A stretch of DNA of 38,095 nt, from the IMG/VR virus record IMGVR_UViG_2526164613_000026. The stretch is one strand, 5' to 3'. Positions 4,391-37,825 of this stretch are shown here, one piece after another. The position numbers and the translations under genes are program-made. Within the stretch, counting starts at the first letter, position 1. The number at the start of each line of letters is the position of its first letter. Below the pieces are notes generated by a model. It saw only the letters and a list, made by a program, of their open reading frames with translations, had not been told where the DNA came from and ran no database searches. This DNA is from a virus. Taxonomy: Duplodnaviria > Heunggongvirae > Uroviricota > Caudoviricetes.

Positions 4391-4397
4391 TTCTCAA

Positions 4398-4745
4398 TCA
4401 ACCAACAACTTTCTTACACGGGAAAGAGCCAATAATTTTCGGAGCATCCATGCTGTTCTGCAACAACTGGACGTTCAGGAAACGCGTTTTAGTGCCAGGT
4501 CGATGGATATACTCGAACCCATAATTGTTGCCATCTTTGGCAGGCATCAGGTCCATTTTGATCTGCATGCCTGTACCGTCTTTACCCAACATTTTTACTT
4601 TTTGGGACGTTACTGTTTCGCCATTGATTTTAAATAATGAATCAGGGATCGCATCCATACGAAAGTTGCCGCATTGCATCGTTATGGTGTTTGCACTTAC
4701 ACCAACAGACACTAATGCCAGCAATGAAAATATCCATCGTTTCAT
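4398..4745 (-). CDS. Accessory secreted/periplasmic protein, 115 aa precursor, unknown function
   Basis: ORF-track N-terminal extension overlaps the hub gene. Internal ATG at 4745 has GAGAGGA upstream and gives MKRWIFSLLALVSVGVSA followed by NT (signal peptide with AxA-like cleavage site, no lipobox Cys). Two Cys in mature part. Confidence 0.6.
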   Translation of the reverse strand: MKRWIFSLLALVSVGVSANTITMQCGNFRMDAIPDSLFKINGETVTSQKVKMLGKDGTGMQIKMDLMPAKDGNNYGFEYIHRPGTKTRFLNVQLLQNSMDAPKIIGSFPCKKVVG

Positions 4746-4747
4746 TT

Positions 4748-5812: not shown

Positions 5813-5814
5813 GC

Positions 5815-6117
5815 TTATTCCGTTGATACCAGTAAATGACTGCGCCCGCCCAAGTCTGTTTTCGTGGGATAATCCTGTGTGCTGTCATCGCAGACCACCA
5901 ACAGCTTAAAACCAAGTCCCATACAGGCGTACTGCGCCAGCAGATCAGCGCCAGTGACGAGAGGAATACCGGAGATTACCGGCTCCCCTCTGTCATTCTG
6001 CAGGTCCATAATCCAGTAAAGATCGCGCCATATGATGCTAATTCGCCAGGTGACACCACCCAGGACGATGCTGAACTGCTGGTTGTCCGCTGTCAGCGGA
6101 ATTTCCTGAATTGTCAT
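5815..6117 (-). CDS. Tail/baseplate protein, 100 aa
   Basis: ATG at 6117 with ATGA overlap to upstream gene. Conserved position after tape measure. Confidence 0.5.
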   Translation of the reverse strand: MTIQEIPLTADNQQFSIVLGGVTWRISIIWRDLYWIMDLQNDRGEPVISGIPLVTGADLLAQYACMGLGFKLLVVCDDSTQDYPTKTDLGGRSHLLVSTE

Positions 6118-6704
6118 TAGCCGCCCCCCAGTAATGACGCCACGTTACCCGTGATGCTTTTCAGCAGTGAAGTATCTGGAGGCTTTGTGGTTTTGTTGCC
6201 GCTATTCTGTACCGCCGACGTGCTGGCCCCTTCCTTCATGTTGGTTTTATCCGCGACGGTAATCTGCTGTGTCCGGGAGATAAGGACCTCCCTCAGGGTG
6301 AGGACGGCGGACAGGACGTTTTCGGTTGTCTTGTCCGTCGTCACTTCCAGCGCCCGGATCAACATGTTGCTGTACAGCCGTTTACCGGTTACCACATCGA
6401 AGGGGATACGACTTTCCTGCAGATCCAGTAGCTCCTGATACGTCTGCTGAGGACTCAGGCCGAGCAGGCTGGTAGCCGTCAGGTTACTGGCAAAATCCAG
6501 CAATGCGCCGCCACCGGCGAAACCAACCTCCATCACCACTTCTGACGGTTTTTTATAGGCATGATCAGCGACAGCGGCCCCGACCTCTACCGGATGCTCT
6601 GTTATTTCAAGCATATCTGTATGCTTCTCTGAAATAACAACACTGGGAACAATCATTCCTATTTTTCTGCTCTGCTGATGAAAAAGTGTAGAGAGAATAT
6701 CCAC
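6117..6704 (-). CDS. Tail protein following tape measure, 195 aa (GTG start) or shorter from ATG 6656
   Basis: GTG at 6704 is preceded by GGTGAGGGTGGG. Alternative ATG at 6656. Function by position only. Confidence 0.5.
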   Translation of the reverse strand: MDILSTLFHQQSRKIGMIVPSVVISEKHTDMLEITEHPVEVGAAVADHAYKKPSEVVMEVGFAGGGALLDFASNLTATSLLGLSPQQTYQELLDLQESRIPFDVVTGKRLYSNMLIRALEVTTDKTTENVLSAVLTLREVLISRTQQITVADKTNMKEGASTSAVQNSGNKTTKPPDTSLLKSITGNVASLLGGG

Positions 6705-8692
6705 TAACCCACCCTCACCTGATTACTTCGCATGACCTGAGCATTTGCAGACTGTTGCCGACGTGCAACCTCATTACCGACAGCGTGCGGATCTCCGCCA
6801 CCGTAAATGTGGTAAGTATTTTGCTGGTTAACCTCTGTCACTTTGCCACTAATTCCTGCCACGGCAGCCTTATTAATCAGCTCTCGGGAATAGATATTTC
6901 TTCCATTTTCATGCTGGATAATACTGCTCATCAATGCTGACATGGTTTGCGGATCGCTCATATTCAGGGCAGCCCGGGGATCCACTCCCAGTCGTTGCGA
7001 TACAGCCCTGATATACGCAGTTGTGTTGTTATTATCAGACGCAGGTGCCCAGGTAGAGATAATTTTCTCCACACTGTTTATTCCCCGTCCGGCGTACAGC
7101 ATTAACTGACGAGCAAGAGCCCGTAATCCATCAAAGGCAGTTTCAAATCTGGCAAATCGCCCGCCCGGGCGTTCAAGAGAAGCCCCTGCCTGACCAGCAA
7201 AATTAAGGTTTCCCGGATTGTTATTCCGTTCTCCTCGTTTCGTAGCCTGTGCATGTTGTTCCGGCTCATCATCACCAAACCAGCTGCGTACCGTCCGGCC
7301 CACGCTACGGGGATCGAATCCCCAGTGCTCTTTAATCCAGTCGGCAGTACTGTTAGCGCTGTCTGTAACCATCGGCATCGCTGACGGATTTGCGCTGCCC
7401 TGATTAAGTATCTGTTTGCCGATGCTGACGGCATCAGCCCAGCGGCCATCTTTGATAGCGTTGAGCAGGTCGGCGATCATGTTCAGCATTTTGCTGAATT
7501 CGCCCATCTGGTCGATGAAGTTGCTGAAATCCCACTTCAGGGACCATGATTTGGGGTCAATATTGAGTAGTTTCGCCAGCGCTTTCGCCAGGTCGTTAAC
7601 GGTCGTTTTAAGGTCACGAACCATCTTCAGCGCGGCATCGACCTCCGGTTTCCACTTGCCCCAGTCAATCAGGCTGTCGCCGCCTTCCTTCCAGGTCTGA
7701 TAGTCCTCCCACAGGAGGGCAATACCCGCCGCCAGCGCGGTAATGAGGCCAATCGGCGACATCCAGAACGTACTGTTCAGAATGCGCAGCGCAATCGTCA
7801 GTGCGCCAAACAGCGAGATCAACTCCCGCGTTTGCTTATCCAGCGATTGCCACCAGGTGATGAGGCTTGATGTTCCTTCAATCAGTCTGAAGAACAGCCG
7901 CCCGATAATATCCCCGAGCGCCAGAATGCCTTTTATGGCTTTCGTCAGGGTCTGCTCGATACGAGGGAAGTTGTCCAGGATATGGCGGCGCAGGGTGTCC
8001 AGCGAACCCGCAAGCCCACCCGCAAGATTAGAGCCGATTTTGTCACGGGCCATGCCTGCCATCGCGCCAAACTCACGCAGGGAGGTCATAAATTTGTTGG
8101 AGCTTCTGGCCGCCTCGTCAGCATTGAAGCCGATAGCTTTCGCCATTGCGCTGTACTGCCCGGAGAAGCCACCCACACCCCGGCGCATCGCCATAAGGGT
8201 ATTTTCGTCAATGCCCAGCATCTGCGCATACTGGTTAGCCCGGTAATACGGCATGCCGCTGAGCTTCTGGCCTACACCTGTAAAAATAGCGGCCATGTCA
8301 CGCATGTTACCGCTGGCATCCCGTGTCTGTACCCCCAGGCGATTCAGAAATCCCTCTGCCCCGGGATTGTTACGAATAAACCGGGAGAGGCTTTCCAGAG
8401 AAGATCGCGCAGCGTCCACGCTGCCGCCAACCTGCGAAACCGCATAGCCAATAGACTGAATTCCCTGGACTGTCGCGCCAGTGCGCTGTGACGCCCAGTA
8501 AAGATTATCCAGGCCGGAGGCAATCTTAGCCGTAAAGGCCACCACGGACAGTGCAGCTCCTTCAACGGCCAACCCCATTTTGATGACATTTGCAGTTGTC
8601 CCGGCGAGGACAGAACCGAATTTTTTTGCTCCAGCATCATCCACACTGAAGCCAAGCGAGACGAGGAAATCTTTAATAGTTTCAGCGTTCAT
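6704..8692 (-). CDS. Tail tape measure protein
   Basis: About 660 aa. ORF track starts at TTG 8713; first ATG is 8692 with GAGAGGA upstream. Ala/Gly-rich repeats and hydrophobic segment, directly downstream of chaperone. Confidence 0.8.
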   Translation of the reverse strand: MNAETIKDFLVSLGFSVDDAGAKKFGSVLAGTTANVIKMGLAVEGAALSVVAFTAKIASGLDNLYWASQRTGATVQGIQSIGYAVSQVGGSVDAARSSLESLSRFIRNNPGAEGFLNRLGVQTRDASGNMRDMAAIFTGVGQKLSGMPYYRANQYAQMLGIDENTLMAMRRGVGGFSGQYSAMAKAIGFNADEAARSSNKFMTSLREFGAMAGMARDKIGSNLAGGLAGSLDTLRRHILDNFPRIEQTLTKAIKGILALGDIIGRLFFRLIEGTSSLITWWQSLDKQTRELISLFGALTIALRILNSTFWMSPIGLITALAAGIALLWEDYQTWKEGGDSLIDWGKWKPEVDAALKMVRDLKTTVNDLAKALAKLLNIDPKSWSLKWDFSNFIDQMGEFSKMLNMIADLLNAIKDGRWADAVSIGKQILNQGSANPSAMPMVTDSANSTADWIKEHWGFDPRSVGRTVRSWFGDDEPEQHAQATKRGERNNNPGNLNFAGQAGASLERPGGRFARFETAFDGLRALARQLMLYAGRGINSVEKIISTWAPASDNNNTTAYIRAVSQRLGVDPRAALNMSDPQTMSALMSSIIQHENGRNIYSRELINKAAVAGISGKVTEVNQQNTYHIYGGGDPHAVGNEVARRQQSANAQVMRSNQVRVG

Positions 8693-16498: not shown

Positions 16499-17816
16499 TC
16501 TCGATGTCCTCGTCGGTAATGGATGCCCCGATGCCGGTTACGTCAGAATTTTCGCGCAAATCAGTCATAGCGGCTTTCAGTGTCATCAGACCATCACCCA
16601 GCGCCGTACTGATTGCGTTGGTAGTGTTTAACGCCACCGTTGAGCGATCGACATCAGACATTTGCCAGAGCGGGTTAAACTCAAACGTGAAATCGTCCGG
16701 CAGCGGCTTGCCAAGCTCCGAACGATGCATGATGTCCAGTATCCGCCGCACCGGAAGACGTAAACGCCTCTCCTGTAACGAGCTTACCCGGTCGTAATAG
16801 TTGGCAAGGTCTGCATCGCCGGTAGAAAATCCTTTCGGGGACTGTCCGAACAACCGCACCAGTGGGATACCAACAGCGCCACTAATCTGTTCTGCAAACT
16901 GCGAAAGGATGTCATCCAGACCACTGAAGCTGTACTGATGCGTTTCAAACTTATCCCGCGAGTCCATGAGTGTCATACCTTCATTGCTCTGGAACTGTCG
17001 AATCAGGTCGATATTCTTCAGCAACGCTTCATACGCAGGACCACCAAGTGCGATAAGCTCGCGTAGCTTCTCCACGCTGTAGGTGCGCAGATGCGCCTTG
17101 TAGACCAGCTGCGCCGCGCCGACAGTAGCGCTGTCGAACGCGGTAAGACGATCCCAGATACGCTCTACAACCGACATTCCCCATTCGTTCTCGGTCATCT
17201 TCTGCTGAAATGGCAGCGTGACGCCATCAAAGCGAATCAGGCGACTGTGATGAATGCGCCAGGCTGGAATGCCCGTTGCTGTGGTCACCACATCGTAAAA
17301 CTCAGGTTTACCCAGGTCCGGCCCCATATCTTTAATGCGGCGGGTCAGTACCGGGTCGATCATCCAGCGGTCGAGCGGGAGAATCCCCTTAAACTTGCCC
17401 TTACCGATGGTTTCGGGTCGCAGCGGGGTCATTGGTGCCTGCCCCTCAATCATGATGAAACCCACCGCGCCGCCGTAGAGGCGCGACCATTTCAGCACGT
17501 CATTCAGCGCATCCCAGATTTGCAACTCATCCAGTTGTGATTCGAGAATGCCACGATCTTTTGCATCAATTTCCGACGTGATGCGAATGCCTTTGCGGGT
17601 CATATCATCCGGGATAGCATCGACTGCTTCGCCGATGATCCAGGATGAACGATAGGACCATTCCACCAGCATGCGGTTACGACTGGTGAAATTAGCCCGG
17701 TAGGTGGATGCTGAGTGCTGGTTAGGTGTCTGCATCCCTACGCGGGCAATAAAATTCTCATAACCATCAGCTGTGGCCTGCGCAGTTCGCCGCAGGGCTT
17801 GTTTGTTTCGTGCCAT
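16350..17816 (-). CDS. Portal protein
   Basis: 488 aa, ATG at 17816 with ATGA overlap to large terminase stop. Acidic C-terminal tail. Confidence 0.8.
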   Translation of the reverse strand: MARNKQALRRTAQATADGYENFIARVGMQTPNQHSASTYRANFTSRNRMLVEWSYRSSWIIGEAVDAIPDDMTRKGIRITSEIDAKDRGILESQLDELQIWDALNDVLKWSRLYGGAVGFIMIEGQAPMTPLRPETIGKGKFKGILPLDRWMIDPVLTRRIKDMGPDLGKPEFYDVVTTATGIPAWRIHHSRLIRFDGVTLPFQQKMTENEWGMSVVERIWDRLTAFDSATVGAAQLVYKAHLRTYSVEKLRELIALGGPAYEALLKNIDLIRQFQSNEGMTLMDSRDKFETHQYSFSGLDDILSQFAEQISGAVGIPLVRLFGQSPKGFSTGDADLANYYDRVSSLQERRLRLPVRRILDIMHRSELGKPLPDDFTFEFNPLWQMSDVDRSTVALNTTNAISTALGDGLMTLKAAMTDLRENSDVTGIGASITDEDIENAEDEAPPGIGESDDEPQEPSGGNPLSNQPTQDSAGGRRHRKWSLRWFK

Positions 17817-19438
17817 CAGGCCTGTCTCCCTAGCAGCTCCCAGATGTTCAGGGCTGAATTCATTGGGGCATAGTTGATCATCACCGAGTCGGCAAGGTTT
17901 GGCGATCGGGTTCCATCAGGCTGTTTATCAATAACGATTTTTCCCACACCATTAATGGAATAGGTCGGCTGCGAAAGCTCGATGATGAGTTTATCTTTGA
18001 GTGCCATGCTACTGCTGATTGAGATGATTTCGTCCGGGTTGTAAGCCATACCTTCAACCACGGCGCGCCAGGTATTCTGAAAAAGTTTACGTAACCGCCA
18101 CCAGCTCTGGGCTTTGGCGTTAGCGAAGAAGTCCTTGTTCAGACGTGCGGCTTGCCCGTTGTCCCCGCGAACAGCTTCATCATCCGGATCAAATACCGCG
18201 CCACTACCTCGAAACGGTGTGGCAAGTATTGACGGTCGACGCGCAGCGTTACGCAGTTCGTTGATAGCGCGTGCATCGCCGCGAACGCCAGCGCCCAGCC
18301 CGTCCTCGTCAAAGCGAAACTCTTCGAGGTTGTCCTGTTCGCAAAAGCCGAAAACCTTCTCGACGGACTGATAAATGTCGCTGCCCACACCGGACCATTC
18401 CCGCACATTTTCCAGGAGGAAGCCATGACGGGTGGAAAAGGCATTTTTGTCCCTGCCTTCGTCGGCGACATCCATCGCGCCAAGTCGTTTGCCTGTTGGC
18501 TGGATACCCAGTTTGATATGCGCATCAACGGCAGCCTGTACCCATTCGGATGGAATCAGAACGCCTTCCGCTGATGCGCTGTAGTTCAGATCAAGTTCCT
18601 GTGCCACCACCACCGGATTATCGATTTTCTCGCATTCCCTGCGATACCACTCTTCATCCTTGCGAGGATCATCCCGCCAGTGGAATGTGAATACCGGTAT
18701 CTTCCCGCCATGACGCTTCTGAGCGAACGGGTTAGCCATGCCGTTAACTGAACTCAGGTCGATACGGCAACGCGTTGTTTGTGACAACGCCGCATCAATC
18801 AGCAGAGGACGCTGAAGGAATGCAGCCTCATCAACCAGATAAAGCGTGGTACGGTCACCACGACCAATATTATCGCCAGCCTCGCCTTTGATAACGGCAC
18901 CAGTTTCAGGAAACTCAACACGCATATATGGCGCGTGCTTCTTCTCGCTCCACGAACCGCGAAACTCTACAGGTAGCGTTTCCACGAACTTGCGTGCCTT
19001 CCAGAACAATGCTTTCGGGTCACCGGTGCTGTCGACGTATTCCTCTTTACGGGAGCCGAAACCGATAACCATTTCTTTGTTGAAGAGACAAAGCGAGCAG
19101 GCCAGTCCGATCGCGGTCCAACTGAGCCCCATTTCACGGGATTTTTCGGTAATACCATTCTCCCGATTGCCCCAGCGTTCCATAATCCAGTGGATCCACT
19201 CCTCCTGCTTAGGGAAGAGTAAAAACGGAATGGTCACCGGCAGGCCATAATCAATATTACGCGGGTCCGTTGTCATGCCCCAGTCGATGATGAACTGAGC
19301 CGGATTGGTTCGGTAAAACTGCTTCAATACGGGCAATATTTCAGGATTCTGGCGAATGCGCTGTAGGCGTTCCATCCGCCATTCAAAAACCATCTGGTAA
19401 TCAGGATGTTTAAAATCGAAGGGGAATGGTAACGGCAT
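17816..19438 (-). CDS. Terminase large subunit
   Basis: 540 aa, ATG at 19438. ATPase-like N-terminal and nuclease-like C-terminal halves. Immediately downstream of small terminase. Confidence 0.9.
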
Positions 19439-19440
19439 AC

Positions 19441-20013
19441 TTAGCCCATCATTTTTCTATACGCCTCTGCGGCCTGCTCCGGCGTTAAGTTGGTAATTTC
19501 TGTTCTGACGGGTCCTCCATCAGCGCCAGTCACTTCATTTTTGACGTTGTCTTTAAACGCCTGAACAGAAACATGACGCCCAAGCAACTCAAGGTTTTTA
19601 ACCTTATCAGGCCACTTAATCTTTTTAAGGATCCCGACCATTTCTCTGTCATCTCCTCGCCCCTCAAACATTTCAGCGAGGTTAAATCCACTCAGGTACC
19701 GACGCCACGATTCCGGCCACGCAGACAGAGGCTTAATACTTAAATCGTCCTCCAGGATGTCAGCCACATCGAGCCTGTCGATCTCAACCAGTCGCATCAG
19801 CACATAATTAGCATCAATGCCCAGTTGATCAATACGCTCCTGCTTTAGCTCGTTAATACGGGCGCGTATCTCAGGTTTACCGTATAGTTCAGCCCCCGTA
19901 ACATGTGCTCGCCTGGAGACGTAGCCTGCGCGAATAGCTGCTTGTGTAGCATTCAGATCGACAAGAAACTCGCGACAAAACACCTCGTGTTTTGCTTTCA
20001 GCTTCTTAGTCAT
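19441..20013 (-). CDS. Terminase small subunit
   Basis: 190 aa, ATG at 20013. N-terminal [25 protein letters not shown] is typical of small terminase DNA-binding domains. Confidence 0.75.
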
Positions 20014-21847: not shown

Positions 21848-22189
21848 TTATCTTACCTTGATGCCTGATGCCGTCAGATGTTTACGACAGTCCTGAATAC
21901 CTTCGTTATAACCCGCATCGTAGAAGCTATCCGGCTTTGCCTTCAGCGCAGGAAGCGTAACGCTGGTAGCTCTTCGTTCGGCCAGAACACCTGCCTGAAA
22001 GAGTGTCCACATCAACTGAACTGCTGAATCACAGTAAGTAACATCTTCACTGTACAATTCTCGTTCAATCCTGATGCCAAGTTGAGCCTTCATTGATGCG
22101 CCAATATTACCTTTGACCTGCAACGACAGGTCTGGGTACCTCTGTTCCATGAAGCTTTCAAATCTGTTGCGAACGCTGATCAGAGCCAT
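21848..22189 (-). CDS. Hypothetical protein, 113 aa, between Q and the late/lysis region
   Basis: ATG at 22189 with AAGGGAA 6 nt upstream. Only 31 nt after Q stop. No family recognised. Confidence 0.5.
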   Translation of the reverse strand: MALISVRNRFESFMEQRYPDLSLQVKGNIGASMKAQLGIRIERELYSEDVTYCDSAVQLMWTLFQAGVLAERRATSVTLPALKAKPDSFYDAGYNEGIQDCRKHLTASGIKVR

Positions 22190-22220
22190 CTGGTTCCCTT
22201 ACGTGATTGATTGCTGGATA

Positions 22221-22643
22221 TTATGCCGCCGAGCAGCTCCTACGCAAAGTCCTGATAGCCTGAGGCTTTGACTGAACCGACTGATCCATTTCGAGCACCA
22301 CATCCAGCATGGCTAAGCAACCGTCAATAAATCCCTCTGCCGCCTGAAGCCTCTTCAGAACGTGGGTGTGAGATACGCCGAGCTTCTCACCCATCGCCCG
22401 CACGGGCATGGCCTGGACGTAATGCCACTCAAGGAGCGTGCACAGATACGGATCTTTTTTCTTCAGGCAGCTCATAGCGGAGTTGATGATAAGACCGTCA
22501 TTGTCACTGCATTTCAGCCTTCCAGACTGCGTCGCGGGTAGCAGATTCTTAAACCCGGCTGCAACAGGAGGAAAGTAGACGCTACCACCTTCACTCGCTG
22601 CCCAGCCACCCCAGCGCTCTAAAACCTGTTGAATATTACGCAT
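22221..22643 (-). CDS. Late-gene antiterminator Q (QuuD-like family)
   Basis: 140 aa, ATG at 22643. N-terminus MRNIQQVLERWGGWAA and overall pattern resemble DLP12 QuuD as recalled. Sits immediately upstream of the late region. Confidence 0.75.
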   Translation of the reverse strand: MRNIQQVLERWGGWAASEGGSVYFPPVAAGFKNLLPATQSGRLKCSDNDGLIINSAMSCLKKKDPYLCTLLEWHYVQAMPVRAMGEKLGVSHTHVLKRLQAAEGFIDGCLAMLDVVLEMDQSVQSKPQAIRTLRRSCSAA

Positions 22644-22774
22644 GGCTCTGACCTCTACGTTTTGCTACGAAAAAATTTTCTGAGAACTACGTCTGTTTAT
22701 CCGTGGGTGTGGATAACGCAGTTCCGATTCGCATATTGCATGTATCAACATGCAAAAAGTTGCTAATGCGGAGT

Positions 22775-22962
22775 GGAACCACCTGCCCCCACCTGGAACC
22801 ACCTTTTCCTAACCTTTCCCTCAATCGACTTATATATATATATGGGGTTTCTAGTAGAAAGGCGGTTCCAGTGGTTCCAGTGGTTCCGCCCCGCTTGCCA
22901 CAAGGTCTGCAAGGTGGAACCACCTTCTCTTTTAGGTGGTTCCGCGTGGTTCCAGCGGTTCC
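22775..22962. repeat. Iteron cluster, putative replication origin
   Basis: Nine GGAACC/GGTTCC hexamers counted by hand (consensus about AGGTGGTTCCA): three in one orientation at 22775, 22795, 22916 and six inverted at 22864, 22873, 22882, 22938, 22948, 22957. They flank a (TA)n tract TATATATATATAT at 22831..22843 and overlap the primase-helicase 3' end. Confidence 0.65.
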
Positions 22963-25118
22963 CAAACCTTGCATTTTTTCCCCCCAATTCGCCTTTGGGC
23001 ACGCTTATACCCGCAATTTTGCAAAACATTACTAATTCGCATTTCTTCGCGTTTTCCGATGCGGTCAGGATTTAGCCCAATCGCATCACGCAAAACATCA
23101 CTTGCGCGTAAAAATTCGCAATTTCGCGGAAGTTCATTAGTCATCAGGTCTGGCGTGTCGAGCCATTTCTCTACCGTTTCAAGCCAAGCATCCTTGATGG
23201 TGTACTGTTCATGGACACTCGCTGCCAGTTGTTCAGCCTCACGGAACTGGATACCCCCCAGACGCTGAAACACCTCACGAGCCTCAGCCCAAAGTAAAAG
23301 GAGATCTCTTTTTATCACTTTCACGTCGACTTTCGACACTTCCACGGGGAGCCAGCGACGGTTACCAGTCTTGTCCGCAAGGAATTCGTCCTCATTGGTG
23401 GTACCAACGAACACCAAGCGACGAGGAAACTGGGTGGCGAACTCCCGGTATTTCGGGATCCAGTTTTCGTGAGTACGCGTCACAAACGCTTTGATTGACT
23501 CCAGCTCTTTGGTATTAAGTCCGCGCAGTTCACCAATCTCTGCCACCAGCCGACCACGCATTTTTCGAGCGAGATCATCGTCTTTTTCGGCAAAAGAGAT
23601 TTCAGTAAAAAACGCAGGATCAGGGCTCAGTGCCTCCACTCCGGAAGACTTACCGCAGCCCTGCGGACCAACGAGGATCGGCACCATATCCGCTTTGATG
23701 CCTGGCTCCAGTACTCGCCCCGCCAACGCGGTCCACATGTACATAGACACCGCACGGGTATAAGGCGTGTCGGCTGTACCGAAGTGCGTATGGTAGAAAC
23801 ATTCGATGCGCGGCACGCCATCCCACTCCAGCCCGTTCAGCCAGGTGATCGCTGAATCGAATGGTTGTTCATCGGCTGCAAGTAACACCACATCGCGAAT
23901 AAGTTCACGACCAACAGGTTTAAATCCCCGCTTTTCCATCGTGATGCGCAGGCGCGCATAATCCGCATCGGTGAATGCCCGCCATTGTCCGGATCCTGCA
24001 GGGGCAAACATGATTTCGTCGCGGAACTGGTCAAAGCGAATATCGATGTCCACAAAATCAGGGCGTACTACTGCTTTGGCTGCGTTGCTGATGGTTGCCT
24101 CGATACGCCCCCATTTATCACGCTCGAAAGCAGGCAGCGGTAAAGGTTCCGCCACTTCGGTGCTGGTCAGATCTTCGAAATCGTCGTTGCGGATCCCGAT
24201 GGCATTAAGGAAATCTCCGTCATCACGATGCGCACAACTGGCATGCAGGCATTTAAAATGCCCCTGCTCAAAGCCCGCGGTTCCCGCAGGAAAATAAGCT
24301 GTGCTTGTTGGATCGCCCCCGCTACTGTGGCCGTCTTCAAACGGACAGCGGATATATCGTTCACCATTTGCGCCATCCAGCAGCGTCCAGCCATTGGCAT
24401 CAAGATATTCAGCTGTATCATCCGTCGCGCCGGGCGTGAATGCTGATCGGTCGCGCATCTTCGTGTTGCCCGCTTCGGTGGTTACCGACACAGGGAGTTG
24501 TTCAGCCAGGCGCTGCCACAGCGTTTCAAGCTGCTCACCAGTAATAGCCGGAGGTTCATCCGGCAAACCACCGTCCCATTCAATACGCGCGCCGCTGCTG
24601 TGCGTACCACAGGCAACGAACTGCTGCCCGTTCGCCAGCAACTCGATAATGCCCATATCCCCCGCCAGGCGATGGATACGCTTACGGAAATCACCATCAA
24701 CGGCCAGCAGATACAGACACTTATTACTGTTTGCTCGCCAGCGTCGCGGCGGCAACTCCCCCAGAAGTTGCACAAGCGTTTTGCGAATATCTGCCTGAAT
24801 GTCTTCATCTTCGCTATCGCAGTCCAGCGCCAGCCAGCCATGGCCTGTACGCACGCAGATGCCATAATCCGGTTCATTCGACCAGCGGGCAAAATCATGC
24901 TCAGTAGCAACATACCCGGTCCATTGAGCAATACCGGTGACCTGGCGGTCCCGGTTATAGCGACTTGGCGTCTTACCCAGCGCTTTCAGTTTACTATCAG
25001 GGGATATAGTCGCACCGGGGTTACATACAACTGGGAGAAGATGATCAGTTCTCCCCAATACCAGGTCGAAATGAAACCACTCATCAGGCGTAGCTCCCCA
25101 TGGTTTGCTATCGGACAT
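22932..25118 (-). CDS. Replicative primase-helicase (PrimPol-like N-terminus plus VirE-type P-loop C-terminus, P4 alpha-like architecture)
   Basis: 728 aa, ATG at 25118, 3 nt after Cro-like stop. Walker A ILVGPQGCGKSS and Walker B-like RLVFVGTTNE in the C-terminal half. Last codons are encoded by the iteron repeats. Confidence 0.8.
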   Translation of the reverse strand: MSDSKPWGATPDEWFHFDLVLGRTDHLLPVVCNPGATISPDSKLKALGKTPSRYNRDRQVTGIAQWTGYVATEHDFARWSNEPDYGICVRTGHGWLALDCDSEDEDIQADIRKTLVQLLGELPPRRWRANSNKCLYLLAVDGDFRKRIHRLAGDMGIIELLANGQQFVACGTHSSGARIEWDGGLPDEPPAITGEQLETLWQRLAEQLPVSVTTEAGNTKMRDRSAFTPGATDDTAEYLDANGWTLLDGANGERYIRCPFEDGHSSGGDPTSTAYFPAGTAGFEQGHFKCLHASCAHRDDGDFLNAIGIRNDDFEDLTSTEVAEPLPLPAFERDKWGRIEATISNAAKAVVRPDFVDIDIRFDQFRDEIMFAPAGSGQWRAFTDADYARLRITMEKRGFKPVGRELIRDVVLLAADEQPFDSAITWLNGLEWDGVPRIECFYHTHFGTADTPYTRAVSMYMWTALAGRVLEPGIKADMVPILVGPQGCGKSSGVEALSPDPAFFTEISFAEKDDDLARKMRGRLVAEIGELRGLNTKELESIKAFVTRTHENWIPKYREFATQFPRRLVFVGTTNEDEFLADKTGNRRWLPVEVSKVDVKVIKRDLLLLWAEAREVFQRLGGIQFREAEQLAASVHEQYTIKDAWLETVEKWLDTPDLMTNELPRNCEFLRASDVLRDAIGLNPDRIGKREEMRISNVLQNCGYKRAQRRIGGKKCKVWEPLEPRGTT

Positions 25119-25121
25119 GGG

Positions 25122-25334
25122 TTAAGCCTTTTTATCGTTTTGTGAGCCATACAACAGCCAATTAGGGTCGCAATCCAATGCTATAGACATTTCAAGAAGA
25201 TAACGTGGCCGAGCAATAACACCACTTTCAATTCTGTTTATTGCCTGCTGGCTCACTCCTGTGAGCTCAGCCAACGTAACTTGCGTCATTTTGAGTTCTT
25301 TACGTCGTTCTTTTACTCGGGTCGCTAAGGTCAT
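25122..25334 (-). CDS. Cro-like XRE-family HTH regulator
   Basis: ORF track starts at TTG 25352. ATG at 25334 has GAGGTG 6 nt upstream (70 aa). HTH pattern QVTLAELTGVSQQAINRIESG. Divergent from repressor gene. Confidence 0.7.
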   Translation of the reverse strand: MTLATRVKERRKELKMTQVTLAELTGVSQQAINRIESGVIARPRYLLEMSIALDCDPNWLLYGSQNDKKA

Positions 25335-25454
25335 TGCTTTCACCTCATACAATTTTAGTGGTATTTAGCAACAACAAACGGGGTTTGTCAAATACAACAA
25401 AAATTGTTTTTAATGTGGGTATACACATTAATACAACCCAGAAGGACTAATCCC
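25335..25454. promoter_or_regulatory. Divergent immunity-region promoter/operator interval
   Basis: Perfect -35 TTGACA on the minus strand (plus 25386..25391) directed toward cro. Overlapping inverted repeat ACAAAC-GGGG-TTTGT (about 25371..25386) plus further ACAA/TTGT half-sites. Confidence 0.5.
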
Positions 25455-26711: not shown

Positions 26712-26861
26712 ATGAAACCTGAACACCTCTATCGACTGACGGGGCGCGATGTTCTCCGTTATCGCCGTAAAAACTTCGATTTGATGACCGGTCTGGCCGT
26801 TGCCACTGCGCTCGGTCTGATCATCACTTTCATTCTCCTTGTAGCGAGGACCATAGTATGA
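26712..26861 (+). CDS. Small membrane protein, 49 aa
   Basis: Hand-translated [55 protein letters not shown] 8 nt upstream. TGA overlaps ATG of next gene. Below ORF-track cutoff. Confidence 0.3.
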   Translation: MKPEHLYRLTGRDVLRYRRKNFDLMTGLAVATALGLIITFILLVARTIV

Positions 26862-27760
26862 GTTTAGAAACCAGTCTCGAACTTAATAATCAACTTCTGG
26901 CACAACATAATGCGCTGCTTGAACGTCTTATCCGCACAATGGCATCAGGTATTGTTATGCATCCTGACACGATTTCACGAGTGCAGGAATGTCGGGATAC
27001 AGCAACTGAAACTGAAAATATGTCAGCGGCAATGACACTGGATGATCTGGAGTTCAGCGACGTTATCGCACTGGCTGGTTTCTACCCGGTAGCCACCCCT
27101 ATCACAGAAGACATGCTGCAACGTGCTGTTGCCTACCGTGATGCTGAAGGCGATAAACGAGTAGTTCAGATTGATGCTCTCGACAGCGCGTTGCAGGGCG
27201 TCAAACGAGCCAGGGCGCTGCTTAAACCTGCTCTCCTGGACCTGTCCCGTAACATTCTTAAGTTCTGGGACGACCTGCCAACCATCGGCGAGCGACGTGC
27301 TTTTGCCGAGCAGCTACTTGATGCACCTGCAGATGGGCGTGATGAAGTTAAGCCGAAAAAGGCCAGTAACAAAGATGGAGAACGCACGGGGCCGTTTTAC
27401 GTCAAAAATGTATCCGGCACAGCAACCAGTGAACTCCACACCTTACGCAAGTTGAACGAGATGCTGAAAAAAGGCCATATCGAGATCAACCGTGTTGAGT
27501 ATCTTCAGCTGCAGGAAGAATTTGCACGCAGAGACGCAGCAAATTCCAGCCAGAATAATGACGCCAAAGATGACCATACAATTGATTTCGCGGCACTACG
27601 CAAACAAGCTGAAGGGTTGATCCTCCAGTTAGCAAAAGGGGGTTACCGGGCAGAAGCTATTGCAATTCTGGAAAAACAGGGAGCCAGGAAACTTGGTGAA
27701 GTAACGGATGAAAATCTCGCTGAAGTAATCACCCTGGCTGAAAAAGCACTGGAGGGTTAA
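26858..27760 (+). CDS. Hypothetical protein, 300 aa, first gene of replication/recombination module
   Basis: ATG at 26858, translationally coupled to the downstream nuclease gene. No family recognised. Confidence 0.55.
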
Positions 27761-29079: not shown

Positions 29080-29628
29080 ATGAAACTGAAGCTGAACAAT
29101 GTTCGTCTGGCCTTCCCGTCTCTGTTTGAAGCTAAAACTGTAAACGGCGAAGGCGATCCACGTTTCTCCGCAGTATTTTTAATGTCACCCAAACACCCAC
29201 AACTGGAAGAAATCCGTAAAGCTATGAAGCAGGTAGCGAAGGAAAAATGGGGAGAGAAGTGGGAGCCCATTTATAACCAGCTGGAGAAAAAACTCAATCT
29301 GTGCCTGCATGATGGTGATGAAAAAGCAGAGTATGAAGGCTTTCCCAGTAATTTCTTCCTGAATGCTGCTAACAAAGCGCGCCCAGCTGTTCTTGATCGC
29401 GATCGTTCGCCACTTATTCAGGCTGACGGACGTCCCTATGCAGGGTGCTATGTAAACGCCGTTATCGATATCTGGGCACAGGACAATAATTTCGGTAAAC
29501 GCATTAATGCCTCACTCGGCGGAGTCCAGTTCCTGCGAGACGGCGATGCATTCGCTGGCGGCGGAGTGGCAAGCGCTGACGATTTCGACGATATCAGCGA
29601 AGGTGCTGATGCTGAAGCACTAATTTAA
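29080..29628 (+). CDS. DUF2815-type protein (SSB-like, replication module)
   Basis: 182 aa, ATG with AAGGAA upstream. N-terminal MKLKLNNVRLAFPSLFE pattern. Conserved partner of the DUF2800 nuclease and PolA. Confidence 0.65.
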   Translation: MKLKLNNVRLAFPSLFEAKTVNGEGDPRFSAVFLMSPKHPQLEEIRKAMKQVAKEKWGEKWEPIYNQLEKKLNLCLHDGDEKAEYEGFPSNFFLNAANKARPAVLDRDRSPLIQADGRPYAGCYVNAVIDIWAQDNNFGKRINASLGGVQFLRDGDAFAGGGVASADDFDDISEGADAEALI

Positions 29629-29643
29629 CCCTACTTCATAGAC

Positions 29644-29662
29644 GCCCGGTTAAACACCGGGC
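29644..29662. terminator. Perfect hairpin between convergent genes (possible bidirectional terminator)
   Basis: GCCCGGT-TAAAC-ACCGGGC, 7-bp stem, no strong U-tract on either strand. Confidence 0.4.
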
Positions 29663-29680
29663 TACTGATTAGGCGTATAA

Positions 29681-30061
29681 TCACTCAGGAATCTTAATCT
29701 TTCTCAATTCTTTATTTAGTTCACAGATCTTTTTCTTAGACGGGAAAGTATCATACATCCAAAAACCAACAGTCTCTAAAACTATTATCATAACCATATA
29801 CACAAGATAATTTAAAAGGCCTTCATTTTGCCCTATGGAAATAATGCAGATAATAGAAAAAAGGGTAAACAGCACAAAACACAGAAAGGAAAACAGACGA
29901 CTAATAATAAATAAAAAACCTGAAAAATCAACATTAATAAAAAACACTCCGTTATCTTTCTCTATATAATTCTGAAGCTTAATCAACTGATTTATATACT
30001 GTCTTTTTTCTAATCTATTGCAAATGTAAATAACATCTCTTCGGTTATAAGAGGATTGCAA
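29681..30061 (-). CDS. Accessory membrane protein ORF, 126 aa from TTG (or C-terminal part of a longer gene interrupted by TAG)
   Basis: AT-rich, antisense to replication module. Two long hydrophobic segments. Starts at TTG without a Shine-Dalgarno. In frame with the ORF upstream across a single TAG. Confidence 0.45.
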   Translation of the reverse strand: MQSSYNRRDVIYICNRLEKRQYINQLIKLQNYIEKDNGVFFINVDFSGFLFIISRLFSFLCFVLFTLFSIICIISIGQNEGLLNYLVYMVMIIVLETVGFWMYDTFPSKKKICELNKELRKIKIPE

Positions 30062-30121
30062 TTTCAGCGCATCACGAATAATTTTATCATTTATTCTTTT
30101 TTCTATGGCTTTCTTATCCTC

Positions 30122-30310
30122 CTAATCCAGATAACGTTCATACTTAATTAAATATAAAATTAACTTCTTGACATATTTAGGCTCTTTATACTTATAATTA
30201 AAAATGATCTTTCTTATCCAGACTCCCATAACAATCAAACATGAAAAAATATATCCAGCTATTTTCTCCAGATGCTCTGTATGGTCAATCAAGTATTGGA
30301 TCATATGCAT
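30122..30310 (-). CDS. Small accessory membrane protein, 62 aa (or N-terminal part of interrupted gene)
   Basis: ATG at 30310, one hydrophobic segment (IAGYIFSCLIVMGVWI). Stop TAG at 30122..30124, followed in frame by 20 sense codons and then the 126-aa ORF. Confidence 0.4.
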   Translation of the reverse strand: MHMIQYLIDHTEHLEKIAGYIFSCLIVMGVWIRKIIFNYKYKEPKYVKKLILYLIKYERYLD

Positions 30311-30356
30311 AATTAATCTTTTAATCAGTTAATAGAATAAAAACCAAGGTAAACAC

Positions 30357-32420
30357 ATGTCCAATATACTATGGGGCGACCTGGAAACCTATTGCGAAAT
30401 CCCTATTACGAACGGTACCCATGCGTATGCCGAAGGCGTTGAAGTGATGCTTTTCGCATGGGCTATCAACGACGGGCCAGTAAACGTGTGGGATATCACT
30501 GCCGGTGGTGGTATTCCACACGGCTTATACGAAGCAATCGCAGCCCCTGAAACCCTGCTTTATTTCCATAACTCTCACTTCGACCGCACCGTTCTGCGTT
30601 ATGCAATGCCGCGACTGGCACCGCCAGTCGAACGTTGGCGCGACACGATGGTGCAGGCGCTGGCGCACGGTCTCCCGGGGTCTCTGGGGGAACTCTGCGA
30701 AATACTAGGCGTCCCGCAAGACAAAGCGAAGAACAAAGAAGGTAAAGCGCTGATCCAGCTGTTCTGTAAGCCACGCCCGAAAAACAGCAAACTGCGCCGT
30801 GCCACCAGCAAAACCCACCCGGAAGAATGGCGGCGCTTTGTTGCTTACGCCGGACTGGATATCGAGGCAATGCGCGAAGTCTATAAACGTCTGCCGAAGT
30901 GGAATTATCAGGGGACAGAGCTGGCGCTCTGGCATCGTGATCAGCAGATCAACGACCGGGGCGTCTGCATGGACATGCAACTCGCGCGCGCTGCGATCGA
31001 AGCGGTAGACCAGGAGCAAAAGCGCCTAGCAAAGCGTACACAGGAAATGACTGATGGCGAAGTGCAGGCAGCCACACAACGAGACGCGTTGATTAAGCAC
31101 ATTGTTGAATCCTACGGTGTGGAGCTACCAGACATGCAACGCAGTACTCTGGAACGTCGTATTGCCGACCCCCATTTACCATCTGCCGTGAAAGAACTGC
31201 TGGCTATCCGCCTGCAAGCCAGTACTACCAGCACCAGTAAATACAAGGCACTGATGAAAGGCGTAAGCCACGACGGGCGCTTACGCGGTACGCTACAGTT
31301 CTGCGGGGCGTCACGTACCGGTCGTTGGGCCGGACGGCTATTCCAGCCCCAGAACCTTCCCCGCCCTTCACTAAAACAGGAACAAATAGACGAAGGCATC
31401 GAAGCACTGAAAGCCGGATGTGCAGACCTGCTGTTTGACAATATCATGGAACTAACCAGTTCAGCGTTACGTGGCTGCATTATCGCGCCAACAGGCAAAA
31501 AACTGGTGGTAAGTGACTTGTCGAATATTGAAGGCCGTATGCTGGCATGGCTGGCGGGAGAAGAATGGAAACTGAATGCATTCAGAGAGTACGACGCCGG
31601 AACGGGTCCAGACTTATATAAACTGGCGTATGCAAAAGCTTTCGATATTGCACCAGATGATGTTGATAAACACATGCGTCAGATCGGTAAAGTCATGGAA
31701 CTCGGTCTGGGTTATGGAGGTGGTGTATCGGCTTTCATCACTTTTGCTCTGGTTTACGGTCTAGATCTCGACGAGCTGGCGAACGCCGCACTGCCAAACA
31801 TTCCCCGCGATGTTATCCGCGAGGCGAAAAGCTGGTACAACGAATCGGTTAAACATAAGTCGACCTTTGGCCTGTCCGAGCGTGTATTCATCGCATGTGA
31901 CTCGCTCAAGCGCCTGTGGCGCAGGGCGCACCCGGCGACCTGCGATTTCTGGTACGAGCTGGAGCGCACTGTCCGCACAGCAATCGCCACACCGCAAAAA
32001 ACATTGTATTGCGGCTATCTTAAAATCCGACGTGATGGCGCGTGGCTGCGCATACAGCTGCCATCTGGACGCGCTGTATGCTACCCGTCTCCGATTATCG
32101 AAAAAGGGAATATCACCTATATGGGTGTTAACTCTTATTCGCGTAAATGGCAACGACTCAAAACCTACGGCGGAAAGCTGGTAGAGAACGTCACCCAGGC
32201 GGCCGCCCGCGACGTTCTGGCCGGAAACATGCCGCTTATCGAAGATGCCGGTTACAGCATTGTGCTGACGGTACACGACGAGGTGATCACCGAAGCACCT
32301 AACACAGAAGATTTCAACGATAAAGCGCTTTCCGCGCTTCTCTCCACTAACCCCGAATGGGCGCCCGATATCCCACTGAACGCTGGCGGTTTTGAAGCGT
32401 ACCACTACCGTAAGGACTGA
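30357..32420 (+). CDS. DNA polymerase I family (family A) with N-terminal 3'-5' exonuclease-like domain
   Basis: 687 aa, ATG with AAGG upstream. Polymerase motifs seen directly: [15 protein letters not shown] (motif A-like), [16 protein letters not shown] (motif B-like), LTVHDEVI (motif C). Confidence 0.9.
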
Positions 32421-36029: not shown

Positions 36030-36226
36030 GCGAGAAACCCGACGATTTACTCACCCCGGATGAAGTATGCCAAAAGTTAGGTATTACACAGAAAACGCTA
36101 TGTGAGTGGAATATTAAGCATCGTCATCGGGCTATCCTGGCACCAATTCGTTTCAGTGCAAAAGTAGTTCGTTATGAGCGCCGAAATGTCGACGCTTTTA
36201 TTCAAAAATGTCGCAGCCAGTATTAA
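36026..36226 (+). CDS. AlpA/Xis-like excisionase or small HTH regulator
   Basis: 66 aa, ATG overlaps helicase stop. Pattern LLTPDEVCQKLGITQKTLCEW is typical of AlpA-family HTH proteins. Converges on the integrase gene. Confidence 0.65.
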   Translation: MSEKPDDLLTPDEVCQKLGITQKTLCEWNIKHRHRAILAPIRFSAKVVRYERRNVDAFIQKCRSQY

Positions 36227-37620
36227 CCTCGCCGCCGTAGCAATGCCACCTGCGCAAGTATGCTCCGCTCGTGAGCCTCGAAAGCTTCGCGCTTCAACGC
36301 AATCTCTTCCTGTAAAATCTCATCAGAAAAGTCGTAATGTTCTGCCATCGGGTCATCTGACTTGCTGGAGTGGTGAAGGCAAAGGAGGCTGATTTCCCTT
36401 CGGTCTGAGCGGGAATAGCCTCTTTCCTTCATCAAGGCAATAACATTGCTCTTAAGGAATTTACGGCACATCGTATTAAATGCACCGTCTTTCCCTTTAA
36501 CAGTTCCATCATGTTTTATTCCTTTTACAGCCCCGTCCGGGCTGTATGTTTTCACCAGCTTATCCAGTGATCGTTTTGAAAATGGCTGCATTGGATCACG
36601 TGGCTGCAAAAATACATAATCCCTGTTGCACTCAGGAACTGAATCACGCCAGGCTTTCTGCTCGTCGATAATCCGCCGGATCTCAGGCGTTATCGGCAGG
36701 CGGAAAGCCTTTTGTGTTTTCATAGCCCCTCGCATGCCGATAACCCCTTCCGGATAAACAATTTCACCAGCCTCCTCGTGAACGTAGTCCCAGCGCAGGT
36801 TATGGACATTAATCGGACGAACACCAGTGATGATCATGAAGCGAACAGCATTCTTCTGGTGTACAGAGGTGCAGGCAGCAACATTGAGCCAGAGTCGGGC
36901 GATTGATTCAATATCGGTAAAAAGCCGTGTGGGGGTAGGTTTCTGTACGCGGGAGGAAACATAATCATCTGGCAGACTGGCGGCAACATTGCGGCCGTTG
37001 CAAAGAGTAGGTGCGCAGAACTTCCAGAACCGACGGAGCTCGGCAAACAACTCCAGGGCGTTATTGTTCGAGCGAGTGGCGATCCACTCGTCCAGCACTT
37101 CCACCAGCCGACTGTATGTTACGTCGCTGAACACCTCGCGCTCGCCGAACGTTGATTTAATCCGGTCGATACGCACCCCATAGGTTGTGAAACTGTCCGG
37201 GCTCAGCTTCTGACGGGCTACTTTGGCTTTGAGGTCATCCCGGTACATTTCCAGCGCTGCATGTACGGACTCTGCCCGCAGTCCACCGTCAGCCATACCT
37301 AGTGCTTTTTCGCGCGCCAGCTGGATAGCGAGCTCCGGCCACTCGCCGAGCTTTTTACCTTTGAGGCCCATCTTTTTTGGAAACTCGGCGTAAAATGTAA
37401 CCTTACCGGCTTTGCTGAAATCGATACGGAGATAGTTCTCTTTTTCGTATTTGGAACGGCGAGCCACGCCGGAAGCAGCGAGGATGATTTTGGCGGCAGC
37501 AACACAGATTTTCATGTGTGCGCTGGTATAGGGGGGTTTACAGGCGTCCCATTTTTCAGAAGCGGCTAAAACATCGTCATTATTGGGGCTATCCGGATTA
37601 TGTGTTACAGTGCGCGGCAT
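36223..37620 (-). CDS. int: Tyrosine integrase
   Basis: ORF track starts at TTG 37626; ATG at 37620 has AAGGA 7 nt upstream (465 aa). Recombinase-like motifs (MIITGVRP, C-terminal LCLHHSSK...EHYDF). Terminal position next to a host gene. Confidence 0.8.
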   Translation of the reverse strand: MPRTVTHNPDSPNNDDVLAASEKWDACKPPYTSAHMKICVAAAKIILAASGVARRSKYEKENYLRIDFSKAGKVTFYAEFPKKMGLKGKKLGEWPELAIQLAREKALGMADGGLRAESVHAALEMYRDDLKAKVARQKLSPDSFTTYGVRIDRIKSTFGEREVFSDVTYSRLVEVLDEWIATRSNNNALELFAELRRFWKFCAPTLCNGRNVAASLPDDYVSSRVQKPTPTRLFTDIESIARLWLNVAACTSVHQKNAVRFMIITGVRPINVHNLRWDYVHEEAGEIVYPEGVIGMRGAMKTQKAFRLPITPEIRRIIDEQKAWRDSVPECNRDYVFLQPRDPMQPFSKRSLDKLVKTYSPDGAVKGIKHDGTVKGKDGAFNTMCRKFLKSNVIALMKERGYSRSDRREISLLCLHHSSKSDDPMAEHYDFSDEILQEEIALKREAFEAHERSILAQVALLRRRG

Positions 37621-37825
37621 TCTCAATCCTTATCTGCGTAGGCGCAGAAAACAAGCTCACACATACAAGTCTTTTCTACGGGACAAAATGCAATGTGTTG
37701 CGGTTTTGTGTTGCTGGACTGAGTTTATCAAGGTTAAATACACTGGATCAACATACAGTAAGTTAATGACAATAAAGCATACAAACTCGATACAACTTAC
37801 TGATTTTAAAATAATTTAACGGTAA

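Follow-up and report, generated by a model that had tools for sequence, protein, structure and literature searches.

A Probable SaPI/PICI-type Replication Origin at the 3' End of a Primase-Helicase Gene in an Escherichia coli Prophage

The DNA analyzed here is a 38,095-bp stretch of prophage DNA from Escherichia coli O55:H7 (IMG/VR record IMGVR_UViG_2526164613_000026), referred to below as the window and numbered from its first letter. A cluster of short repeats (iterons) at the 3' end of the primase-helicase gene of this prophage is very probably the single replication origin of the phage and, together with the gene, constitutes a pri-rep-ori module of the type known from the pathogenicity islands of Staphylococcus aureus (SaPIs) and phage-inducible chromosomal islands (PICIs). 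The iterons are predicted to be recognized by a winged helix at the C terminus of the encoded initiator. Support for an origin comes from the local enrichment of the repeats, the conserved layout of the cluster in related phages, the covariation of the iterons with the initiator, the constraint on iteron positions, and the homology of the initiator to SaPI1 Rep. The probability that falls outside this reading belongs mostly to an array that binds the initiator and yet is not the site at which replication starts.

The Repeat Cluster and Its Anatomy

The hexamer GGAACC/GGTTCC occurs 18 times in the window compared with 17.2 expected occurrences, and its overall count is therefore at chance level. 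Nine of the 18 copies fall within 22775-22962. At the density seen outside this cluster, 196 bp should contain 0.047 copies (Poisson P ~3e-18), and in 300 Markov-1 simulations no 196-bp stretch ever held more than three copies. GGAACC/GGTTCC is the most clustered hexamer of the entire window. A scan of the window with GGTGGTTCCA placed all exact matches inside the cluster, along with four of the seven matches carrying one mismatch. The original prediction, made from the sequence alone, had reported nine copies within about 190 bp, and the comparison with background bears out both that number and the local enrichment. A tenth, degenerate site, absent from the earlier count, is also present in the cluster.

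The ten sites are arranged in four groups between 22774 and 22963 and occur in both orientations, with groups I and II converging on a core. Group I (22774-22804, minus strand) comprises three sites with a 10-bp period that read TGGAACCACCT on the plus strand (3.1 copies according to Tandem Repeats Finder). The sites are located at 22774-22784, 22784-22794, and 22794-22804, the middle one being the degenerate site (GCCCCCACCT), and a homologous triple is also found in relatives. Group II (22860-22888, plus strand) adjoins the core on the other side and consists of three head-to-tail sites conforming to AG(G/T)(C/G)GGTTCC, at 22860-22870 (AGGCGGTTCCA), 22870-22879 (AGTGGTTCCA), and 22879-22888 (AGTGGTTCCG), for which Tandem Repeats Finder reported a period of 9 with 100% matches. 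The 55-bp core between these convergent groups (22805-22859) is a putative DNA-unwinding element. It contains a (TA)6T tract at 22831-22843, is the duplex-stability minimum of the region 22400-23400, and ranks fifth among the least stable distinct 20-bp sites of the window.

The remaining four sites lie closer to the initiator gene. Iteron III (22915-22925, minus strand) is a single inverted site, reading TGGAACCACCT on the plus strand, whose position is common to all iteron types described below. Paired with the first site of group IV, it constitutes a perfect inverted repeat of 10 bp whose arms are 8 bp apart. Group IV (22934-22963, plus strand) has three sites, at 22934-22944 (AGGTGGTTCCG), 22945-22954 (CGTGGTTCCA), and 22954-22963 (AGCGGTTCCC), and overlaps both the stop codon (22932-22934) and the last ten codons of the 728-residue initiator open reading frame (ORF), where it encodes the tail WEPLEPRGTT. 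The sites outside group IV fall in the 288-bp gap ahead of the Q gene (22221-22643). The earlier description of repeats in both orientations, with three tandem 9-bp units, bracketing a (TA)n tract and lying directly downstream of the primase-helicase gene and in part within its 3' end, agrees with this layout in every particular that could be checked.

In relatives carrying the same iteron type the stop codon may precede or follow the group IV-type sites (compare locus L028 with L069, and L060 with L016; locus numbers refer to the collection described below). Because the stop codon varies around the sites in this way, the group IV sites are DNA elements, and the protein tail that they encode is incidental and dispensable. 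In L012 and L066 one gene-internal iteron is missing and the end of the reading frame is shifted, so that the ORF crosses the inverted iteron and ends eight residues later (..EPLEPPKREGGSTLQAL). This read-through is a further sign that the C-terminal tail is under no constraint at the protein level.

Two other elements are found on the distal side of the cluster. An inverted repeat, TTATCCgtgggtgtGGATAA, occupies 22696-22717 between the iterons and the Q start codon and holds the sole perfect DnaA box of the window (TTATCCACA, minus strand, 22708-22716), 58 bp from the iterons. The repeat is kept only in close relatives that share the same region upstream of Q (L016 and L012) and is altered in L032 and L029. 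The DnaA box was considered as part of the origin and rejected, as relatives of identical origin architecture do not conserve it. Together, the TTATCCgtgggtgtGGATAA repeat and its DnaA box probably lie outside the conserved origin. Just past the distal iterons, at 22736-22755, a T-run is followed by a small TTGCA...TGCAA inverted repeat (window form TTGCATGTatcaACATGCAA), which most relatives retain across iteron types (homologous spots in L028, L034, L035, L039, and L052).

The Layout Is Conserved in Relatives That Carry Other Iterons

A search of cultured-phage DNA matched the coding flanks of the cluster alone. It led to related primase genes in Yersinia phage YeP4 and Hamiltonella phage APSE-1, and behind each of these genes the same architecture is found, built from GGTTGTCTA in YeP4 and from GGTTGTTAC in APSE-1. 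In each locus a TA tract separates the inverted sets, a triple array repeats every 9 bp, and some sites overlap the 3' end of the gene. With the terms used to search the open-access literature, we found no description of an origin or of iterons in APSE or related phages.

Homologous loci were collected from IMG/VR (80 loci, of which 75 were usable) and from species-representative genomes (23 loci). In these roughly 100 loci the identical architecture occupies the same place and the AT-rich core is kept, while the iterons are of at least 12 types. The layout was found in nearly every locus with sufficient downstream DNA. The 75 usable IMG/VR loci contain nine iteron types, and additional types came from the species-representative loci, which represent 10 further genera and one Burkholderiales metagenome-assembled genome (50% protein identity). 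Genera with the layout include Trabulsiella, Pluralibacter, Pectobacterium, Xenorhabdus, Photorhabdus, Providencia, Morganella, Arsenophonus, and Phlomobacter. Every iteron type fits the form AGGT(G/T)G followed by a variable 4-mer, which may be TTCC, GTAC, GGAC, TAAC, TTAC/ATAC, TCTA, CTAC, TGAC, or TCTT. The triple 9-bp array is present in nearly all relatives, each carrying its own iteron.

When the loci were aligned type by type, the core between the convergent iterons (ACTAGAAACCCCATATATATATATAAGTCG.TT.GGGAAAGGTTAG.AAA) proved to be conserved over eight iteron types even as the flanking iterons differed. Within the GGAACC type the core is nearly invariant. Such conservation is consistent with a common unwinding element that has lineage-specific protein-binding sites on both sides. 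Constraint on the iterons themselves was assessed within the GGAACC lineage (24 loci, 20 distinct sequences). Variability was four-fold lower in the iteron hexamer columns (0.019) than in the other columns of the origin span (0.083). For the 8-mer sites (0.033) the difference from the other origin-span columns had a P value of 0.002. Conservation drops sharply right past the distal iterons.

The position of the array, on the same strand between the early operon and Q, also raises the possibility that the repeats are an operator or roadblock, bound by the primase-helicase as an autoregulator or by another protein, that controls read-through into Q and is not an origin. Ten tightly bound sites could stop RNA polymerase, and no sense-strand terminator was predicted between the primase-helicase gene and Q. 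However, no promoter-like site was found in the cluster region, and the symmetric arrangement of iterons about a conserved TA core is the design of an origin and not of an operator. Moreover, the array stays with the primase gene where the downstream gene differs: in L028, L034, L035, L039, and L052 the next ORF starts MPVVATFKTDW and not with the Q-type MRNIQQVLERW. A roadblock role would in any case add to an origin function and not replace it. We consider an operator without origin function very unlikely. Control of Q is unlikely to be the primary role of the array, which may nevertheless have a secondary effect on the timing of Q. The sole terminator-like match in the region is a palindromic iteron on the antisense strand, and an Rfam search of the region returned one sub-threshold chance match, outside the cluster. 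An account of the region as a promoter, terminator, or RNA element was rejected because no promoter, sense-strand terminator, or Rfam family was found.

The Initiator Is Homologous to SaPI1 Rep

The initiator gene (22932-25118, minus strand) encodes a protein of 728 residues. It had been described as a PrimPol/VirE protein, and the Pfam matches uphold that identification. A PrimPol domain (PF09250) is matched at residues 66-185 with 41.5 bits against a cutoff of 22.8, and the second match (PF05272, E = 3.5e-60) is to the family formerly called VirE and now VapE, with a VapE/superfamily 3-type helicase at residues 427-639. The protein also has a zinc ribbon-like CxxxxxH...CxxxxC segment, and the C-terminal ~90 residues have no Pfam match. 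The RefSeq label of the protein is VapE domain-containing protein. The only sequence match in the PDB is to SaPI1 Rep bound to DNA (PDB 7PDS), with a phmmer E-value of 1.5e-33 over residues 393-657. A profile search of the PDB for the C-terminal domain matched only the helicase part of the same entry.

The protein has at least 1,383 homologues, and residues 389-728 were modeled with AlphaFold2 from an alignment of 34 of them. The model has a predicted winged helix at approximately residues 644-721 with the topology H-strand-H-H-strand-strand and a predicted local distance difference test score (pLDDT) of 78-88. Its helices span residues 644-653 and 672-680, followed by the predicted recognition helix (residues 689-701) and a β-hairpin wing (residues 704-711 and 714-721). 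The coding region of the predicted recognition helix and wing, as delimited from the model and the alignments, is 22956-23054 on the minus strand. The recognition helix sequence, KREEMRISNVLQN, is invariant across iteron types. In contrast, the second wing strand contains a variable pentapeptide, K715-C716-K717-V718-W719, encoded at 22962-22976 (minus strand). From this distribution we infer that the invariant helix may read the AGGT(G/T)G half of the iteron and the wing its variable half. When Foldseek was run with the model, six 7PDS chains ranked first, with E-values of 1.4e-14 to 2e-12 over 383-391 aligned columns; they were followed by NrS-1, African swine fever virus PrimPol, and poxvirus D5 helicases. 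Against SaPI1 Rep, the structural alignment extends over the entire modeled region.

The N-terminal primase region (residues 1-310) is swapped for a different sequence in APSE-1 (L003), L091-L100, L106, and L107. These loci, from APSE-1, Providencia, Morganella, Arsenophonus, Photorhabdus, and some Xenorhabdus, have a VapE and C-terminal domain ~72-78% identical to those of the window protein. Because the N-terminal region has also been replaced in some relatives, the initiator is mosaic at both ends.

The Predicted Second Wing Strand and the Iterons Are Exchanged Together

The iteron type of a locus is not a function of overall initiator relatedness. Protein bodies (residues 1-699) that are 99.9% identical can be paired with different iterons, and bodies that are 72% identical can be paired with the same ones. 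The window and L016 illustrate the former case. Their DNA is ~100% identical on both sides, and divergence is confined to positions of about -40 to +210 counted from the stop codon, the iteron sites being GGTGGTTCC in the window and GGTTGGTACA in L016. Divergence begins directly after the conserved G713-K714, and the next five residues are the wing pentapeptide, KCKVW in the window. The Photorhabdus locus L106 illustrates the latter. Although its protein is 72% identical to that of the window and differs from it in the N-terminal domain, the locus combines KCKVW with eleven GGAACCAC sites.

In the 75 IMG/VR loci the wing pentapeptide maps to the iteron type without exception (15 pentapeptide variants, nine iteron types). 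The identical decapeptide immediately upstream, KRVQRRVDGK, accompanies five iteron types. Iteron type tracks the wing pentapeptide and neither the rest of the protein nor the downstream gene. In an extended set of 96 loci with 22 wing variants, 12 of the 13 distinct combinations with W as the last wing residue have G at iteron position 5, and eight of the 10 that end in F or Y have T there. The pairing of W with G and F with T spans different 4-mers, as in QQRVF/T-TCTA versus QIRVW/G-TCTA and KMRIF/T-GGAC versus KQRIW/G-GGAC. Such comparisons indicate that the wing strand and the iterons are swapped as a cassette of ~250 bp between near-identical initiators, following a partly readable code.

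Covariation of this kind also bears on the proposal that the cluster represents a partition site resembling a centromere, a packaging (pac) site, or slippage DNA that has no function. Short repeats clustered in direct and inverted orientation are also present in parS/sopC-type centromeres and close to some pac sites. However, no partition genes were found in the prophage, which integrates (integrase gene, 36223-37626), and the terminase genes (17816-20013) are more than 2.7 kb distant. The iterons are conserved relative to their spacers, and neither slippage nor a terminase site would predict that the iterons covary with the C terminus of the primase across genera. Taken together, these alternatives are extremely unlikely.

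A broader reading of the exchange, which we offer tentatively and hold to be somewhat less than evenly probable, is that a hot-swappable cassette of ~250 bp carries a simple recognition code, defines replicon specificity groups, and possibly affects the timing of Q. Under such a code, AGGT would be recognized by the helix, G or T at position 5 by W or F/Y at the end of the wing pentapeptide, and the variable 4-mer by the first three residues of the wing. At least 12 cassettes would define replicon specificity groups, and related prophages would share a cell without cross-firing of their origins. With the array situated between the early operon and Q, its occupancy by the initiator might in addition set the timing of late gene expression. 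Xenorhabdus yunnanensis XENO-10 has two related primase-helicase loci on separate contigs (L091 and L092) with different iterons (GGTTGTTAC versus GGTGGTTAC/GGTGGATAC) and different wings (SQRVY versus VCKVW), a pair that fits distinct replicon specificity groups coexisting in a single cell.

Comparison with the SaPI, PICI, P4, and Lambdoid Origins

SaPI Rep proteins are self-loading helicases in which a C-terminal winged helix recognizes the iterons (PMC9371898). The SaPI ori has 6-12 iterons directly downstream of rep, with an AT-rich region near the center and at least two iterons per side in opposite directions, and it is bound and melted by Rep independently of ATP (PMC9371898). The window cluster appears to fit this definition feature by feature: the iterons start at the 3' end of the gene, opposed sets flank an AT-rich center, and the number of sites, 10, is within the range of 6-12. 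At the protein level, the helicase domain is homologous to SaPI1 Rep, which is the top match both by sequence and by fold. SaPI5 has a primase-helicase fusion, PriRep5, and the window protein is likewise fused. A winged helix is predicted at the C terminus, where the SaPI Reps have theirs, and iteron specificity appears to be tied to the C-terminal domain, here through the wing-iteron association in the 96 loci.

There are also differences. The host of the window element is Gram-negative. Unlike the SaPI and PICI satellites, the element itself is a phage of ~40 kb with its own DNA polymerase, single-stranded DNA-binding protein (SSB), and virion and lysis genes. Its iterons are 9-11 bp long and made up of a conserved and a variable half, whereas those of the SaPIs are penta- or hexanucleotides, and three of its sites lie inside coding sequence. 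Within the initiator, the sequence of the C-terminal domain cannot be aligned with that of SaPI Rep.

The origins of E. coli PICIs share the form of the SaPI ori, and a rep-ori segment of EcCICFT073 maintains a plasmid (PMC6092414). EcCICFT073 has the same host species and the same form of ori as the window element, a likeness that is one of description and not of direct sequence comparison. PICIs are satellites of 10-20 kb with the gene order int-alpA-pri, in contrast to the window phage with its cI/cro switch, Q, lysis, and tail genes.

The original prediction had likened the cluster to the ori/crr arrangement of phage P4 alpha. P4 alpha is a multifunctional primase-helicase whose C-terminal domain binds short iterons, as the window protein would do, and in both elements a block of iterons in both orientations lies directly 3' of the primase-helicase gene. 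In P4 (NC_001609), however, the block directly 3' of alpha is crr (4291-4590; alpha, 4636-6969) and not ori, which lies 2.1 kb upstream of alpha. P4 requires both of these separated clusters in cis, while the window prophage has one, and in P4 a terminator stands between alpha and crr and the gene is not overlapped, unlike the window gene. Furthermore, P4 alpha and the 728-residue protein have no detectable similarity (best BLASTP E-value 0.68). The likeness to P4 therefore holds for the position of the block, at the spot of crr, and fails for homology and for an ori/crr pair. P4 was rejected as the parent family because alpha is not similar and its layout is that of an ori plus a crr.

The position of crr nevertheless suggests a rival explanation, in which the initiator binds the cluster as alpha binds crr and boosts or regulates replication by looping or handcuffing while synthesis starts elsewhere. 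The proximal four sites (22915-22963) have no AT-rich tract between them, and far more AT-rich DNA exists at 29.7-30.35 kb. Against this, a search for 10-mer matches found no second iteron cluster in the window, in the 6 kb of prophage beyond it, or in the prophage flank, so that a partner is missing. The region 29.7-30.35 kb has small ORFs and no iteron arrays. The cluster possesses its own conserved AT-rich core between convergent sites, the self-sufficient SaPI/PICI design, and P4 alpha is no detectable homologue. A crr-like element of this kind is unlikely.

In lambdoid phages, the iterons and the AT-rich region lie in or next to the gene for the O initiator, and the DNA-binding part of O and the iterons are exchanged jointly among related phages. 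The window locus resembles lambda O in both respects, with iterons and an AT-rich region at the initiator's own gene that are exchanged with its predicted DNA-binding part. Lambda O differs from the window initiator in being neither a helicase nor a primase, and it recruits the host DnaB via P. Through its N-terminal domain it binds iterons that lie midway along the gene, in contrast to the iterons at the 3' end of the window gene.

A Model for Initiation

The anatomy, enrichment, conservation, covariation, and protein homology described above are observations; from them we infer binding, melting, self-loading, and the start site as follows. The early operon, consisting of the cro-like gene and then the primase-helicase gene, would produce a PrimPol-VapE helicase with a C-terminal winged-helix domain, and this domain would bind the iterons of 9-11 bp (AGGTGG TTCC A), probably by reading the AGGT(G/T)G half with the invariant recognition helix and the TTCC half with the second wing strand (KCKVW). 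The convergent triplets at 22860-22888 and 22774-22804 would place initiator assemblies on either side of the 55-bp core, in which the (TA)6T tract would melt. The helicase would then load itself, no separate loader being involved, and the PrimPol domain would prime synthesis, to be extended by the phage DNA polymerase A (gene at 30357-32420) with the SSB (gene at 29080-29628). The four proximal sites (22915-22963) may provide added cooperative binding or regulation.

Several observations weigh against the cluster being an origin that is read by the wing. The (TA)6T tract is short, at 13 bp, and the duplex is much less stable at 29.7-30.35 kb than at the core. The DnaA box near the iterons is not conserved among relatives. 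The mapping of wing to iteron has exceptions, since VCRVW and SQRVY are both found with GGTTGTTAC and the extended set includes one W/T and one F/G combination. The wing pentapeptide is encoded 0-15 bp from the first iteron, and because the two physically adjoin, linkage contributes to their association; a share of the covariation could reflect hitch-hiking inside a single recombination cassette. Covariation of the protein tail is automatic, as the last 8-10 codons are iterons themselves. The parallel W/G and F/T pattern over independent cassettes appears harder to explain through linkage alone. As to the protein, the winged helix is a prediction at pLDDT 78-88, and its sequence, as noted, does not align with the C-terminal domain of SaPI Rep. 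An earlier model of the last 140 residues, built from 15 sequences, was too poor (pLDDT 52) and has been superseded by the 340-residue model; the homologue search with the 140-residue fragment had returned mainly partial proteins.

Genomic Context of the Module

Over a 3.4-kb query (window 22000-25400) the window prophage is 100% identical to E. coli DEC5B, and the query has a match in 123 of 5,426 complete E. coli genomes. The prophage is ~40 kb in length and sits between yfhL and yfhH. On the minus strand the order is a cro-like helix-turn-helix gene, the 728-residue initiator gene, the repeat cluster, the Q antiterminator gene, and then lysis, terminase, head, and tail genes. A cI-like S24 repressor gene is divergent from the cro-like/primase operon and is followed by genes for a DUF2800 nuclease, the DUF2815 SSB, DNA polymerase A, VRR-NUC, an SNF2 helicase, and the integrase. 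The gene complement includes terminase, portal, head, tail, baseplate, holin, endolysin, Q, cI/cro, and DNA polymerase genes. The element is thus a complete temperate phage in which the replicon module alone is of the SaPI/PICI type. No O-, P-, or RepA-type initiator gene was found among the prophage genes as annotated by Pfam and RefSeq, and no competing iteron array was found, either outside the cluster within the window or in the prophage DNA beyond the window. With no such gene and a DnaA box that relatives do not conserve, the locus does not match iteron-plasmid or lambda-type origins that depend on host DnaA or on DnaB loading.

Between the SSB and DNA polymerase A genes is a very AT-rich stretch of ~730 bp (29629-30356) that has no RefSeq annotation and in which the duplex is less stable than anywhere else in the window. 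Within it lie two small hydrophobic minus-strand ORFs, at 29681-30061 (126 residues, TTG start) and 30122-30310 (62 residues) and looks like a foreign "moron" insert. An origin in this gap was considered and rejected, as there are no repeat arrays there and small hydrophobic ORFs are found instead. Two further conserved phage ORFs have no Pfam match: one of 300 residues (26858-27760) that opens the leftward replication/recombination operon, and one of 113 residues (21848-22189) between Q and the holin gene.

Implications

The module described here is of a kind already known from SaPIs and PICIs and is not a new kind of system. What is added is evidence from ~100 loci for the exchange of a wing strand and its iterons as a ~250-bp cassette. 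The analysis provides a precise candidate origin and initiator-binding site for a widespread, unstudied group of enterobacterial temperate phages, which spans the aphid-symbiont phage APSE-1 and prophages of pathogenic E. coli, Salmonella, Enterobacter, Klebsiella, Yersinia, and Xenorhabdus. Near-identical initiators paired with a dozen iterons form a natural series for the study of how a winged helix reads DNA, and the same series is a possible source of orthogonal origin/initiator pairs for engineering. For the biology of these phages, the finding means that the pri-rep-ori module of the SaPI and PICI satellites very probably serves also as the replicon of complete phages of Gram-negative bacteria.

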